From IMG/VR virus record IMGVR_UViG_3300027819_000006: 64,000 nucleotides of DNA. One strand, given 5' to 3'. This stretch comes from a virus. Lineage: Duplodnaviria > Caudoviricetes. The position numbers and the translations under genes were made by a program. The number at the start of each line of letters is the position of its first letter. Position 1 is the stretch's first letter. Below, piece after piece: positions 32,540 to 42,716 of the stretch. The notes under the pieces are model-generated. The model did no database searches. It saw nothing but the letters and a program-made list of their open reading frames with translations, and had not been told where the DNA came from.

Positions 32540-32618
32540 TTTGCTCAAGAACTTGGAGTTACACCAATATTTTCTCATTAGATAAATGAGCGCTTTGATC
32601 AATTTGAATTACAAGAGC
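32540..32618 (-). pseudogene. Degenerate tRNA-like sequence
   Basis: Acceptor GCTCTTG/CTTGAGC with two mismatches; CTCAT/ATGAG anticodon stem. Confidence 0.35.
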
Positions 32619-32958: not shown

Positions 32959-33034
32959 TGGAGACTCCAGTTGGAATTTCACCAACACAAAGCAATTTTG
33001 CAGATTGTTCTCTTGAATATTAGAGCATGGAGTC
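32959..33034 (-). tRNA. tRNA-Cys(GCA)
   Basis: Loop CTGCAAA; acceptor GACTCCA/TGGAGTC; T-CCA. Confidence 0.8.
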
Positions 33035-33045
33035 TTATTTTATAT

Positions 33046-33137
33046 TGGTCGGTAAGGAGAGATTTGAACTCTAAAGATGTTTTTATCAACATCTGACAGT
33101 TTAGCAAACTGTTTGGTTCACTATACCAGATCTTCCA
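33046..33137 (-). tRNA. tRNA-Ser(GCT), 5' acceptor strand imperfect
   Basis: ACAGT-TTGCTAA-ACTGT, long variable arm, CCA. Confidence 0.6.
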
Positions 33138-34160: not shown

Positions 34161-34183
34161 TGGTAGCCTGGGAGCGATTTGCA
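34161..34183 (-). pseudogene. 3' fragment of a split tRNA
   Basis: TGCAAAT-CGCTC-CCAGGCT-A-CCA; partner 5' fragment at 35333-35357. Confidence 0.6.
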
Positions 34184-34215
34184 GGCTATGTAATAAATTT
34201 ATTATATGGACTTTG

Positions 34216-34289
34216 TACGGGATGAGGGAGTCAAACCCTCCATCTTGGCTTTATAAGAACCAGGCATTCATCAGGTATGCTAATCCCGT
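34216..34289 (-). tRNA. tRNA-Ile(TAT), CCA not encoded, within a 20-bp perfect inverted repeat
   Basis: TGGTT-CTTATAA-AGCCA; repeat 34204-34223 / 34283-34302. Confidence 0.75.
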
Positions 34290-34339
34290 ACAAAGTCCAT
34301 ATTTCTATTTAAAATTATTAGCTTAAAAGTAAAAATACA

Positions 34340-35227
34340 TTATGCAAGAGCTAATTGTTTCATGAATATGTCGAATTCAACTTCTACAAATAACTCGTTA
34401 TGTTTGCCCATGTCTTTTATAATATAAACTTTATAGCCAGCTCTTTCTATTTCTTTTATTTTTATCTTTTCTCTACTCTGTACTTGTTCGACTGAATGTT
34501 TATCTGCTACTTTCTTATAATGCCAAATACCATTCCATAAAATTGCAGTTTTAATATCTTCTATTATTACATCTGCATCCCAACCATTAAAAATAGCTTC
34601 ATTATGCAGTACGTTTTTAAATTTTCTGCAACACAGTTCATAAAAATATATTTCATTCTTGCTTCTTCTTCTTAATCTCTGAGAATTAGCAGATTTTTTA
34701 CCAGCTTCTCTTGCTTTAGCTAAATATTCAGCAGAAGATCTTGTACATGTTTCACAGCAATATTTTTTATTTGAATCTATTCTTTTCAAAAACATTTTTT
34801 GACAATTGATGCTATTACATGTTACTTCTATTCTTTCTATTTTATGAATATTTACTATTCTGCCGCTTACATAACCTGATTTAATAGTATTTGATACTTT
34901 TTTTCGAGTTTCTTCACTGTGTGTTCGCGCATGCGAACATTTATCAGAACAGCATTTATGAGATAGAGCATTATCTCTAATTCTTATTTGAGTTTCGAAC
35001 CATTTGTTACATCTATCACATTTGTGAAAAACTTCAACCCATAAAATCTTTTTAGCTTTCGACTTTATACTTTTAGATAATTTCTGTAATGATTCTTCTG
35101 AAAACTTTCTTCCATAAAAGGGATTATTAGACCCTTTTAAATTTATTCCAGTGTTGCAGAATCTTTTGTGAGATGTTACTGCTCTTTTAGATTTAAAATA
35201 TCTATCGCATGTATCACATTTTATCAT
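34340..35227 (-). CDS. Homing-type endonuclease (Zn finger, NUMOD3, Vsr/DUF559-like)
   Basis: NPFYGRKFSEE, HSEETRKKVS, RSKNEIYF...WDADV...LWNGIWH. Confidence 0.75.
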   Translation of the reverse strand: MIKCDTCDRYFKSKRAVTSHKRFCNTGINLKGSNNPFYGRKFSEESLQKLSKSIKSKAKKILWVEVFHKCDRCNKWFETQIRIRDNALSHKCCSDKCSHARTHSEETRKKVSNTIKSGYVSGRIVNIHKIERIEVTCNSINCQKMFLKRIDSNKKYCCETCTRSSAEYLAKAREAGKKSANSQRLRRRSKNEIYFYELCCRKFKNVLHNEAIFNGWDADVIIEDIKTAILWNGIWHYKKVADKHSVEQVQSREKIKIKEIERAGYKVYIIKDMGKHNELFVEVEFDIFMKQLALA

Positions 35228-35332
35228 TGAACTATCTCCTCAGTGTTTATACTATAATAAATATAAACATCAAAGAGAAAAGTTCAACTACATATTACCC
35301 CAATCAATACTGTTTATTGAAGCAATATTTCT

Positions 35333-35357
35333 ACCGTCCTGGATCGGTCTGCAGGCT
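35333..35357 (-). pseudogene. 5' fragment of a split tRNA
   Basis: AGCCTGC acceptor strand plus D-arm ACCG/CGGT. Confidence 0.5.
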
Positions 35358-35366
35358 ATTTAAAAT

Positions 35367-35917: not shown

Positions 35918-36376
35918 TTATTCAATTGTCAAATTATTATCTAACCATTCTTCACACTGCTCTTGAGACTTTATATTACCAAGATTGTTCCTAAAATAGA
36001 ATAGTTTCACGTTCAAAATATTTTTAAATGCTTTAATTTTCAATTTAGATATAGTGACGTGTCTTCCTCTTCTAGAGCCCTTTATTTCTATCCATAGATT
36101 ACAATCTGGTATGAAAAAATCAGGAACATATTGCATCCCATCATCTGAAGTTCCATTGCTGATAGTGAATTTTTCAGCATTTTTAATCCAATAGATGTTT
36201 CTACTATTCAGTATATCTGCAAAAGCTAATTCATACAACCCATTCATTTCAAACTGTTCACCTTTTATATTTGCAAATTGTCTATTCTTTGTAAGCTCTT
36301 TTTGAGATTCATGGTTCAAATCAATCATGATATCTCCATTAATTGGTAACCATTTTATATGATTAAATATAAACAA
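35918..36376 (-). CDS. PD-(D/E)xK nuclease-like protein
   Basis: YELAFA...YVPDFFIPDCNLWIEIKG. Confidence 0.6.
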   Translation of the reverse strand: MFIFNHIKWLPINGDIMIDLNHESQKELTKNRQFANIKGEQFEMNGLYELAFADILNSRNIYWIKNAEKFTISNGTSDDGMQYVPDFFIPDCNLWIEIKGSRRGRHVTISKLKIKAFKNILNVKLFYFRNNLGNIKSQEQCEEWLDNNLTIE

Positions 36377-37036: not shown

Positions 37037-37110
37037 TGGTGGACTGAGATGGAATCGCACATCTACCACTAGTTTTTCAAGCTAGCACTCTTCTCCTGAG
37101 TTATCAGTCC
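37037..37110 (-). tRNA. tRNA-Phe(GAA)
   Basis: Loop TTGAAAA; acceptor GGACTGA/TCAGTCC; CCA. Confidence 0.8.
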
Positions 37111-37118
37111 CTATTTAT

Positions 37119-37146
37119 TGGTGCACTTGATAGGATTCGAACATAT
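37119..37146 (-). pseudogene. 3' fragment of a split tRNA
   Basis: GTTCGAATCCTAT-CAAGTGC-A-CCA; complementary 5' GCACTTG at 37872-37878. Confidence 0.7.
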
Positions 37147-37159
37147 ATGAGATTTTTAT

Positions 37160-37237
37160 TGGTGGGTCTGGCAGGAATTGCACCCGCATTTTTCTCCTTA
37201 AAAGGGAGCTACAAAAGCTAATTTTTGTTACAGACCC
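37160..37237 (-). tRNA. tRNA-Lys(TTT) with a 6-bp D-stem
   Basis: Loop CTTTTAA; ACAAAA/TTTTGT D-stem; 5' end overlaps the last codons of the upstream nuclease ORF. Confidence 0.75.
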
Positions 37238-37821
37238 ATTAAAATCTTTAATTCATTTATGCATTTTAAAACATTTTCTTTAACATCTTGAGCTTCAAAT
37301 CTTATAACTTTCCAACCATTTTCTATACTAAATTTATCTCTTCTTTCATCTATTAATTTAACTTTTGGTAAATTATGTGTAGACCCATCAATTTCAACAT
37401 CAATTTTTAAATCTATAAAAGCAAAATCATAACAATATATACTATGCTGATAATTGTATATCCATCCTTCAATGTTTGAATATTCTAAAGCATTTTTGAA
37501 TATTTTTTCTGGATAACTCATTTTAGAGCAATGATTTAGTTTGTATGGAACTTTTTCTGGATGTTCCATTAAATATTTTATTCGATGTAAAGATAATTTG
37601 TTTCTAGTTTCTTCAGTGTGATGTCTGCCTGTCCAATATATTCTTGCTGATTCTGATCTTTTCTTCCTCAATATTTCACTTTTATCATTATCAAGACAAA
37701 ACATTACATGAGAAGTCATTTTTTGTGGTATATCAAAACAAAATTCTTTTTTACAATGTTTGCATACATATATTTTCATTATGATCCTCCAATTATATAA
37801 TAAATATAACTGTCGAATCAT
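37228..37821 (-). CDS. Homing-type endonuclease (NUMOD3 + DUF559)
   Basis: WTGRHHTEETRNKLS, SYPEKIF...YDFAF..IDVEIDGSTH...GWKVIRF. Confidence 0.8.
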   Translation of the reverse strand: MIRQLYLLYNWRIIMKIYVCKHCKKEFCFDIPQKMTSHVMFCLDNDKSEILRKKRSESARIYWTGRHHTEETRNKLSLHRIKYLMEHPEKVPYKLNHCSKMSYPEKIFKNALEYSNIEGWIYNYQHSIYCYDFAFIDLKIDVEIDGSTHNLPKVKLIDERRDKFSIENGWKVIRFEAQDVKENVLKCINELKILMGL

Positions 37822-37842
37822 AAAAGACTTATGTAAAAAATA

Positions 37843-37878
37843 TTTAATAAGCTAGTTCCAGTCATGGTGTACAAGTGC
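37843..37878 (-). pseudogene. 5' fragment of a split tRNA (possibly Lys)
   Basis: GCACTTG-TA-...-CTAG-CTTATTAA. Confidence 0.55.
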
Positions 37879-41053: not shown

Positions 41054-41655
41054 AGAACCTCTCTAACAAATAGTGCAACTTCTATTTTTTCTCCGCATTT
41101 CATTGATAGGTCCGATAGTAATTGTTTAATAATAACTTTATCGTTTTTGATAAACTTTTGCTCTGATAGACAAACTTCTTTGAACCATTTATTCAGCTTT
41201 CCATCTACAATTTTCTGTAATAGCTCTTGTTTATCTGTTTTAAATCCTCCTTTTTCTGTCATTTCTTTCATAGTCACAATAGATAATAGATTCTGCTGAC
41301 TATTCAGCTCTCTTTCAGAAATATCTTCTTTAGAGACATACAGTGGATTTTCAGAAGCTATCTGCAGACATAGATCGTTTCCAAGAACATTAAACTCATC
41401 AGTTTTGGCCACAAAATCAGTTTGACATTTTAGTTTTAACAGAACTCCAATTTTCTTGTTAGCATGTACATATGTGAAAATTCTACCTTCAGAAGTAGTT
41501 GCATTGTTGTTTGTCAGAATCTGAATACTCTGTTCTTGCAGCCATCTGATAGCTAGTTCTATATCATTCTCTGTTTTTTCTAATGCTTCTTTACATTTTG
41601 CAACAGACACATTAGTTCTCTGTCTGAATTCTTTTATGATGTCAAGATTGTTCAT
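41050..41655 (-). CDS. tsf: Translation elongation factor Ts (short form)
   Basis: IKEFRQRTNVSVAKCKEAL...DIELAI, SEGRI, CQTDFVAK, LQIA, IVDGKLNKWFKEVCLSEQKF. Confidence 0.85.
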   Translation of the reverse strand: MNNLDIIKEFRQRTNVSVAKCKEALEKTENDIELAIRWLQEQSIQILTNNNATTSEGRIFTYVHANKKIGVLLKLKCQTDFVAKTDEFNVLGNDLCLQIASENPLYVSKEDISERELNSQQNLLSIVTMKEMTEKGGFKTDKQELLQKIVDGKLNKWFKEVCLSEQKFIKNDKVIIKQLLSDLSMKCGEKIEVALFVREVL

Positions 41656-42716
41656 TTTAGTCCTGCTTGTTTATTCAAATATTTCATGAACCAAATTCTA
41701 GCTGCTGTGCTAGCATCTCTTGTCATATCTTTTGGCTCTAAATTATTTGACTGTAATGTGTCCATTTCCTCTTTAATAATATCATTTACAACCCATTTTA
41801 GAAATGCACCAGTTCCTTTTACGTCTGGCTCAAGTGAATTTTGAGTAAAAACATATTCTATACCCTGTAAAAGTCTAGAATCTGTCACAGTATATGCAAT
41901 AAATTCATTAATAGAATTCATCTTTTCTGTATCTACTTCAGCAAGCTTTTTAACTTTAGAAGAAGAATGTTTCATCCCTTTACTTTTAAATGTAATTCTT
42001 CCAGTTTTGTTACTGTAGTTGCAAAAAACGATTCCTTCTCCTATTCCCTCTTTGCCAAAATATTTACCTACAGGACAGCAAGCTTCTACTTCTTCTGTCA
42101 TTTTCACAATTTCATTCTGCGATCTTTCAGGATAGTTAAAATCAATATCTATTGAATATGTTTTAAATTGATGAACATTATAAATTCTATTTTCATTGCT
42201 ATGAATATTTTTATATTGATCATCTGTTAGCCAATAAGCAAATACAGACTCTTCTTCTATAGCACTCATTGGAGTAATTTTAACTCCAAAAATTAAAAAC
42301 ATTTTTTCAAGTCCAGATATTGCTACTCCACCCTGAATGTTAGACCCTGCCCACTCTCCATAGATTGTAATAATGTCATCTTGTAAACTTTTAGTATCTT
42401 CATCTATTTGTTTGAACAATTTTAAAAAAACATCTTCATTAGATTTTACAAAAAATGCAAATCCAGCATTGTCATGTTCTACAGATACATTATGATTTCT
42501 TGCCTGTGCCCATATTTCTGTACCGTCGAAGGATACAGCTGCATGTGTCCCGTGAATTTTGCAAGTTCCAGTAAATGTAAGAGTTGGCAGCATTACAGAT
42601 GGATCATAGATCGCATCTCCATTTTCATCCTTACCTTTATATCTATAAGATAGCTGCACTCCTTTAATTACATTTCTGAACTGCTCAATTTCAGGAAATT
42701 TAATGAATTTTTTCAT
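41652..42716 (-). CDS. RNA ligase (Rnl2-like)
   Basis: KIHGTHAA (motif I), YGEWAG, GEGIVF, FKSKG. Confidence 0.8.
   Translation of the reverse strand: MKKFIKFPEIEQFRNVIKGVQLSYRYKGKDENGDAIYDPSVMLPTLTFTGTCKIHGTHAAVSFDGTEIWAQARNHNVSVEHDNAGFAFFVKSNEDVFLKLFKQIDEDTKSLQDDIITIYGEWAGSNIQGGVAISGLEKMFLIFGVKITPMSAIEEESVFAYWLTDDQYKNIHSNENRIYNVHQFKTYSIDIDFNYPERSQNEIVKMTEEVEACCPVGKYFGKEGIGEGIVFCNYSNKTGRITFKSKGMKHSSSKVKKLAEVDTEKMNSINEFIAYTVTDSRLLQGIEYVFTQNSLEPDVKGTGAFLKWVVNDIIKEEMDTLQSNNLEPKDMTRDASTAARIWFMKYLNKQAGLK

Follow-up and report, generated by a model that had tools for sequence, protein, structure and literature searches.

What has happened to a tRNA gene whose two ends lie on either side of a 700-nucleotide (nt) insert that holds a nuclease gene and a complete tRNA gene of its own? 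The question is raised by a stretch of 64,000 nt from a virus of the Caudoviricetes (Duplodnaviria; IMG/VR record IMGVR_UViG_3300027819_000006), which we refer to as the window. On its minus strand, within a phage tRNA array, a nuclease gene and a tRNA-Lys(UUU) gene are bracketed by a 5' and a 3' tRNA fragment (37119-37878). A first-pass annotation, made from the sequence alone, had read this locus as homing into a tRNA gene, with a resistant replacement tRNA physically locked to the nuclease open reading frame (ORF). Our analysis leads to a related account, to which we assign a probability of roughly 0.6: a free-standing homing-endonuclease cassette sits in one tRNA gene of the array, where it destroyed the resident tRNA, probably a tRNA-Lys(UUU), and brought its own copy.

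Results

The two tRNA fragments lie where the first-pass annotation had placed them. The 5' remnant (37843-37878, minus strand) begins 18 nt after the preceding member of the array, an interrupted tRNA-Asn (38007-37897, minus strand). It runs through the acceptor strand GCACTTG (37878-37872), TA, a short D-arm (CCA/TGG with a 4-nt loop), A26 and the anticodon-stem strand ACTAG (37856-37852) into CTTATTAA, the loop letters being CTT (37851-37849) and then A-TTAA-A (37848-37843). The 3' remnant (37119-37146, minus strand) holds a T-arm, the acceptor strand CAAGTGC, A73 and CCA; its T-stem, ATATG/CCTAT, has one U-C mismatch, and its T-loop is TTCGAAT.

Both remnants derive from one tRNA gene and not from two, as the annotation had it, a conclusion that follows from their pairing, from pattern counts, from their position in the array and from the score of the 3' piece. 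The two acceptor strands pair at 7/7 positions. The pattern GTTCRANTC, 12 nt, CCA has five matches in the window, all within the tRNA array, against 0.01 expected, and the 3' remnant scores 9.0 bits against a profile of tRNA 3' halves, which is the level of true tRNAs of the window. The sequence GCACTTGTA, the reverse complement of the 3' acceptor strand plus TA, occurs once in 128 kb (both strands) against 0.49 expected, and the chance of meeting it within 1 kb upstream on the same strand is about 0.004; its single site lies 736 nt upstream of the 3' piece, on the same strand, at the very point where one would expect the next tRNA of the array to start. Rfam scans of each remnant alone, aimed at truncated tRNA matches, returned nothing.

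The outer tRNA gene is wreckage and not a spliced gene. It is indeed disrupted by the nuclease gene and the tRNA-Lys, as described at first pass, but the fragments do not sum to a whole tRNA: positions 35-48 or 39-48 are missing, so that there is no variable loop and no 3' side to the anticodon stem. Rfam found no group I or group II intron signal between 31000 and 40000 of the window, and ARAGORN, allowed introns of up to 1500 nt, called no tRNA spanning the gap between the remnants. Neither a ribozyme core nor two exons that join into a whole tRNA, the features of a group I intron, are thus present at this locus, and it is the missing stretch together with the lack of an intron ribozyme that speaks against splicing.

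Between the remnants, the order on the minus strand is a 63-nt leader, the nuclease ORF, the tRNA-Lys(UUU) and a 13-nt spacer, so that the cassette extends from about 37147 to about 37848. The elements listed by the annotation (a promoter-like motif, a DUF559/NUMOD3 nuclease and a complete tRNA-Lys) are all there. The leader (37780-37842, minus strand) is predicted to fold into a hairpin (37823-37779) that encloses the ribosome-binding site (RBS) GGAGG (37790-37786) and the A of the ATG; its computed energy is -21.8 kcal/mol (z-score -5.0), and 0/200 shuffled sequences fold as well. At the top of the hairpin (37809-37796) lies the late-promoter-like motif TTATATTTATTATA, found five times in the window against 0.63 expected; two of these occurrences are exact, and both precede nucleases of the array. 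An RBS hairpin that restrains translation, with a promoter inside it or just upstream, is a feature of free-standing homing endonucleases, and both the computed fold and the enrichment of the motif place the leader in this class. Transcription would be expected to start within the hairpin. The same leader design precedes a second nuclease in the window (35300-35215, z-score -4.6) and the nuclease of a related locus, L020 (z-score -5.9). An alignment of four nuclease leaders was uninformative.

The inner tRNA-Lys(UUU) (37160-37237, minus strand) is complete and encodes its CCA; it is called by ARAGORN and scores 49.5 bits with Infernal against a gathering score of 29. Its first 10 nt coincide with the last two codons and the stop of the nuclease ORF (GGT CTG TAA), which agrees with the annotation. 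The physical lock that the annotation saw in this overlap is real, but it is not new, as T4 segB and tRNA-Arg overlap in the same way (PMC2330249). The 6-bp D-stem noted at first pass (ACAAAA/TTTTGT) could form, although the structure drawn by ARAGORN has 4 bp. The tRNA has further oddities, namely the T-loop TGCAATT, a D-loop without GG and a G-A pair at 27-43. The spacer that follows it, ATAAAAATCTCAT (37147-37159, minus strand), resembles other spacers between tRNAs of the array. As a separate observation, a non-standard elbow occurs in several tRNAs of this phage: both this tRNA-Lys and the tRNA-Cys at 32959-33034 (T-loop TGAAATT) have a G in place of the near-universal U55, and both D-loops are without GG.

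The window has a second cassette, built in the same way, at a distance of 2.5 kb from the first (34161-35359, minus strand). It consists of a tRNA stub, a hairpin leader with TTATATTTATTATA, the gene of a 295-residue zinc-finger/NUMOD3 nuclease, a complete tRNA-Ile(UAU) and a 3' remnant. The two nucleases have only their NUMOD3 and zinc-finger motifs in common; the cassette design therefore recurs with different enzymes.

The nuclease ORF of the first cassette (37228-37779, minus strand) starts with the ATG at position 37779, six nt after a GGAGG, and encodes 183 residues: a C2HC-type zinc finger, a NUMOD3-like motif and a C-terminal Vsr-like (DUF559) catalytic domain. Pfam detects DUF559 (E 1.5e-10) and, below its cut-off, NUMOD3 (E 0.019), and no GIY-YIG domain, the feature of the SegB family; the enzyme is not homologous to SegB, although it would act in a similar way. 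The AlphaFold (AF2) model has a predicted local distance difference test (pLDDT) score of 89. In Foldseek searches it matched the catalytic domain of I-Bth0305I (3r3p; template modelling (TM) score 0.68-0.70, probability 1.0), the DUF559 structure 3hrl (TM score 0.82) and also Vsr (1vsr, 1cw0). The modelled C-terminal domain thus has the Vsr fold of Vsr-like homing endonucleases, and the nuclease, which the annotation had already called a homing-type enzyme, is by its Pfam domain and modelled fold a Vsr-like enzyme, probably of the EDxHD type.

We collected 161 homologues, none more than 60% identical and many on contigs of 0.3-0.4 Mb; they are found in a wide range of contexts and in differing orientations. 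Among the 33 members that we aligned, conservation is strong over the C-terminal 125 residues; at the N-terminus some have zinc fingers and others segments resembling a helix-turn-helix. The window nuclease retains 31/31 invariant columns of this alignment, including D118, D127, E129, D131, H135 and D148, the last five of which are candidates for the composite E-D-x-H-D motif. Judged by its sequence, the protein is predicted to have nuclease activity. Proteins of the family stop about two residues earlier than the window nuclease, whose final G-L and stop come from the 5' end of the tRNA-Lys.

Across the family the nuclease is linked to tRNA-Lys, a tie that is newly described here. Our context sample comprised 22 viral loci (given as L numbers) and further contigs. 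In 13/16 lineages the tRNA nearest to the nuclease is a tRNA-Lys at no more than 120 nt; of all tRNAs in these loci, Lys makes up 22% (binomial P 7e-7, which is too optimistic as the lineages are related). Four more lineages (L108, L111, L112 and L113) also have a tRNA-Lys within 120 nt, bringing the total to 17/20; in L111, however, the closest tRNA-Lys called by ARAGORN is 172 nt away, and only a probable tRNA-Lys(UUU) that ARAGORN missed lies nearer. The arrangement differs from locus to locus. The tRNA-Lys lies directly downstream on the same strand in the window, L112 and L020; it is convergent and touches or overlaps the end of the nuclease ORF in L010, L012, L013, L099 and L105; it lies directly upstream in L001, L003, L017, L018, L101, L108, L111 and L113, and on both sides in L103. 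This variety of tandem, convergent and upstream placements argues for repeated events. In many family loci the tRNA-Lys gene is present in two or three copies, or Tyr and Lys genes alternate in arrays. We note in this regard that in L001, L003, L101, L111 and L113 alternating tRNA-Tyr/tRNA-Lys arrays with two or three Lys copies stand right before the nuclease, an arrangement reminiscent of amplification driven by SegB. Both tRNA-Tyr and tRNA-Lys are targets of defense systems (Septu and PARIS).

The relatives also indicate where the target probably lies. In L105, L106 and L107 a gap of 2 nt separates the end of the nuclease gene from the 3' end of a tRNA that is split in its anticodon loop by an ORF-less, 195-nt group I intron (Rfam 59 bits; L105:3589-3859, minus strand, with the nuclease on the opposite strand; likewise in L106 and L107). 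If the intron ends in the universal G and the loop has 7 nt, joining of the exons gives CTT+TTAA, the loop of a Lys(UUU). The reading of this tRNA as a likely Lys(UUU) rests on the G with which a group I intron ends, on A73, on synteny with L010 and L012 and on a tRNA-Lys as best match. The register of the P1 helix in the Infernal alignment would set the 5' splice site one base earlier.

The closest relative, L112 (59% identity), has a 5' tRNA half before the nuclease, and a tRNA-Lys(UUU) 6 nt after it. Among 166 tRNA 5' halves, the best match of this half is a tRNA-Lys (score 15; shuffled sequences 8.9 +/- 1.1, maximum 12). It ends in CCGGA CTT-AA-TTAA, that is, in the Lys loop CTTTTAA interrupted after U34 by two further A, and the window stub ends in ACTAG CTT-A-TTAA, the same loop interrupted there by one further A; the annotation had remarked that the 5' fragment ends close to a Lys loop. 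In L020 (34% identity), an element resembling a 5' half precedes the leader; it ends in CTTGA CTT, without TTAA, and scores 7.1 bits in the 5'-half profile, as true tRNAs do. From the intron site in L105-107 and the stubs of L112 and the window, the target is probably the 34/35 junction of the tRNA-Lys(UUU) anticodon loop. The loop of the window stub, the likeness of the L112 stub to tRNA-Lys and the L105 intron at this same junction make it likely, on these sequence comparisons, that the outer gene was itself a tRNA-Lys.

Our searches for further traces of the outer gene gave the following. The intact pattern GCACTTG...CAAGTGC with its T-loop was absent from viral contigs, metagenome contigs and bacterial genomes, and exact scans of viral contigs for either stub found none. 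A 22-mer of the 5' stub had two matches in metagenomes, which we rejected as chance because the DNA was unrelated, of higher G+C content and not a tRNA. Alignment to 166-246 tRNAs gave no isotype for the window stub. ARAGORN runs on the relatives allowing introns of 300-3000 nt returned only spurious chimeras of two real tRNAs. In L019, two more tRNA genes apparently carry long inserts (L019:8830-9144 and L019:6460-6723), and the insert at L019 8854-9072 is a group I intron (Rfam 56 bits).

The cassette stands in an array of tRNA genes that runs on the minus strand from 38007 to 32406 (ARAGORN, Infernal), in a window with a G+C content of 30% and nearly all of its genes on the minus strand, among them the T4-type genes for a UvsX-like and a gp32-like protein, RNA ligase and thymidylate synthase. 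Eight nt after the 3' remnant follows the next tRNA of the array (37040-37110, minus strand; anticodon loop TTGAAAA, Phe GAA; Infernal 42.7 bits), a tRNA-Phe-like gene that Infernal alone detects and ARAGORN misses. Directly after a tRNA-Gly of the array lies a third nuclease-like gene (35918-36376, minus strand; 152 residues; PHROG endonuclease, E 1e-9). At 33046-33137 (minus strand) a tRNA 3' end (T-loop, CTTACCG, ACCA) comes after an anticodon arm resembling that of a tRNA-Ser(GCT) and a long variable arm, without a matching 5' acceptor strand; neither ARAGORN nor Infernal calls a tRNA there, and the element may be another damaged or unusual tRNA. A tRNA-shaped unit at 32545-32617 (minus strand), which starts with GCTCTTGTA and has the anticodon loop TTATCTA and the T-loop TGTAACT, has two U-U mismatches in its acceptor stem and is called by no tool.

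The DNA of the cassette region had no match among the INPHARED phages. The 218-residue product of an upstream gene had no homologue among 5.8 billion proteins, and all contigs carrying that gene are identical to the window. Relatives of the thymidylate synthase are at most 42% identical; there is therefore no sister phage for comparison.

Discussion

We propose that in a mixed infection the nuclease would cut, close to anticodon position 34/35, those tRNA-Lys(UUU) genes of related phages that lack the cassette. Recombinational repair would then copy the nuclease gene together with the spare tRNA-Lys, which would compensate for the gene destroyed. The resident tRNA gene, cut in or just after its anticodon loop, would be left as two dead ends that cannot be spliced, and the inner tRNA-Lys would presumably be immune to the nuclease. 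Expression may be restrained at two levels: the nuclease would be translated only from transcripts that start inside the hairpin, and maturation of the tRNA-Lys by RNase P would remove the stop codon from the nuclease mRNA, holding nuclease levels low.

Several points weigh against this account. The literal anticodon of the stub is UAU (stem ACTAG) or AUU (stem CTAGC) and not UUU. The D-arm of the 5' stub is odd, and no model (Rfam, half-tRNA profile) recognizes the 5' remnant, which is also true of most true tRNAs of this phage. The loss of 10-14 nt of the outer gene is not what simple homing would lead one to expect, and suggests a founding event other than clean homologous repair. ARAGORN in intron mode labels the L105 tRNA as Asn(GUU), a reading that needs an intron ending in U. 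The loci L020 and L112 show no 3' stub, which leaves the window as the most complete bracket, and the kinship of the lineages discounts the P value for the tie to Lys. Finally, and with bearing on both the isotype and the mobility, no cassette-free allele and no intact outer tRNA was found in viral contigs, metagenome contigs or bacterial genomes.

One other possibility is that the cassette landed in an unrelated tRNA gene, for instance a tRNA-Ile(UAU), by illegitimate or T-loop-guided recombination, with the tRNA-Lys as a passenger or usual neighbor. We judge this rather unlikely. It would take the stub at its word, with the stem ACTAG and the literal CTTAT giving the anticodon UAU, and would suit a D-arm unlike that of any tRNA-Lys in our comparison set and a deletion of 10-14 nt, which points to a non-homologous event; T4 SegB, moreover, recognizes a generic T-loop motif without isotype preference (PMC2330249, PMC13096335). 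Such a chance landing does not, however, agree with a nuclease family tied specifically to Lys, with an L112 stub most like tRNA-Lys, with the reduction of both CTT-A-TTAA and CTT-AA-TTAA to a Lys loop or with an intron at the same junction in L105. That the two fragments are chance look-alikes is scarcely credible even in AT-rich DNA and with a 5' piece that no model recognizes, since their joint chance is about 0.004 or less, the 5' piece begins where the next tRNA of the array should, and another cassette, built alike, is present at a distance of 2.5 kb.

Another reading takes the stubs as scars of nuclease-driven segmental amplification and collapse in the array, as with SegB of T6, the nuclease being kept because it amplifies or spreads an anti-defense tRNA-Lys. 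SegB does amplify a unit of tRNA-Tyr and truncated segB bounded by microhomology (PMC13096335), relatives have, next to the nuclease, tRNA-Lys genes in two or three copies and arrays in which Tyr and Lys alternate, and PARIS cuts host tRNA-Lys, from which T5 escapes with a tRNA-Lys of its own (PMC11464382). We nevertheless find this explanation improbable, as the window contains no repeat of the unit and the stubs are complementary halves of one gene and not copies of each other; it also partly overlaps with the loss and replacement of a resident tRNA-Lys that we favor instead of excluding it. Very improbable, in turn, is a functional outer tRNA, made either by excision of the insert as an intron or by proteins that ligate the halves, such as the RNA ligase encoded 4 kb upstream (41652-42716). 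The perfect acceptor pairing and the intact T-loop would fit, but the outer gene has neither a variable loop nor the 3' strand of its anticodon stem, Rfam gives no sign of a group I or group II intron, and the intron mode of ARAGORN comes back empty.

The cassette that we favor, a homing endonuclease gene with a spare tRNA-Lys, has its closest parallel in SegB of phages T4 and T6 (PMC2330249, PMC13096335). SegB too is encoded by a free-standing gene that lies in the tRNA array of a phage and is preceded by an RBS-sequestering hairpin; it cuts tRNA genes and is copied along with flanking tRNA genes, as we propose for the window nuclease. Its ORF likewise overlaps the 5' end of the next tRNA, so that tRNA processing parts the last codon from the stop: in T4, processing of tRNA-Arg cuts the segB mRNA at this point, which has been proposed to limit SegB synthesis (PMC2330249). 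The combination of an RBS hairpin and a late promoter is shared by I-TevI, I-TevII, I-TevIII, segB and mobE, where read-through transcripts are silent and those starting inside the hairpin are translated (PMC2988022, PMC2330249). The overlap of stop and tRNA, the hairpin and the nuclease in a tRNA cluster are thus all known from T4 SegB and are not new. What differs is the fold, which is GIY-YIG in SegB and Vsr-like DUF559 in the window nuclease, the relation to tRNA isotypes, SegB having no preference (PMC13096335) and the family described here being tied to tRNA-Lys, and the physical splitting of the resident tRNA gene into two stubs in the window. We therefore describe the cassette as a SegB-type free-standing homing endonuclease with a Vsr-like enzyme, a tie to tRNA-Lys and a spare tRNA in place of an intron.

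Among homing endonucleases, the enzyme itself stands closest to I-Bth0305I, the prototype of the Vsr-like EDxHD group (PMC3239194), which it resembles in its C-terminal domain, as judged by fold comparison, and in the variability of N-terminal DNA-binding modules. Members of this group occur in phages beside introns and also free-standing, between the two halves of "fractured" phage genes (PMC2677866), which is the position of the window nuclease. I-Bth0305I, however, is encoded by an intron of recA, and in fractured genes the repair is by split inteins (PMC3239194, PMC2677866), whereas in the window the host gene is a tRNA and the remedy a whole spare gene. The loci L105-107, in which the nuclease abuts a tRNA-Lys(UUU) with an ORF-less group I intron, have a layout like that of F-CphI beside the intron-bearing psbA of cyanophage S-PM2, the case of collaborative homing (PMC6083498; reviewed in PMC2988022). 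Such a layout is expected if the nuclease cuts the insertion site of the intron. The window differs from the F-CphI case in having no intron, and the nuclease families differ. A homing nuclease of the PD-(D/E)XK superfamily, I-Ssp6803I, is said to lie in a group I intron of the tRNA-fMet gene of Synechocystis and to be likewise aimed at the anticodon-loop region of a tRNA gene. That enzyme is reportedly intron-encoded, with the tRNA restored by splicing, whereas the window has no ribozyme and its outer gene is dead.

Homing nucleases are usually kept harmless by a self-splicing intron or intein, or by a site beside a gene. Breaking the gene and supplying a whole spare copy would be a third solution, one that the small size of a tRNA gene makes feasible, and our literature searches found no description of it for phage tRNA genes. 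The family points tentatively to a broader picture, in which position 34/35 of tRNA-Lys(UUU) genes in phages is the homing site of a clade of Vsr-like nucleases, the damage is neutralized by interchangeable means and atypical tRNA-Lys genes are spread between huge phages as a result. The remedies would then be a spare tRNA-Lys (the window, L112 and L020), a group I intron at the cut site (L105-107) or a divergent neighboring allele.

Such a spread may matter for the conflict between phages and their hosts. PrrC, like PARIS, is a host nuclease that cuts tRNA-Lys(UUU), and the atypical tRNA-Lys genes that are spread may resist both. It is possible that the inner tRNA-Lys of the window is an anti-defense tRNA, given its unusual D-arm and T-loop. 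The relatives, with a spare tRNA in some, a group I intron in others and a plain neighbor in the rest, form a natural series on how free-standing nucleases and introns meet. The tie of the family to tRNA-Lys(UUU), the tRNA that PARIS cuts, suggests that selfish nucleases help to move anti-defense tRNAs among huge phages.

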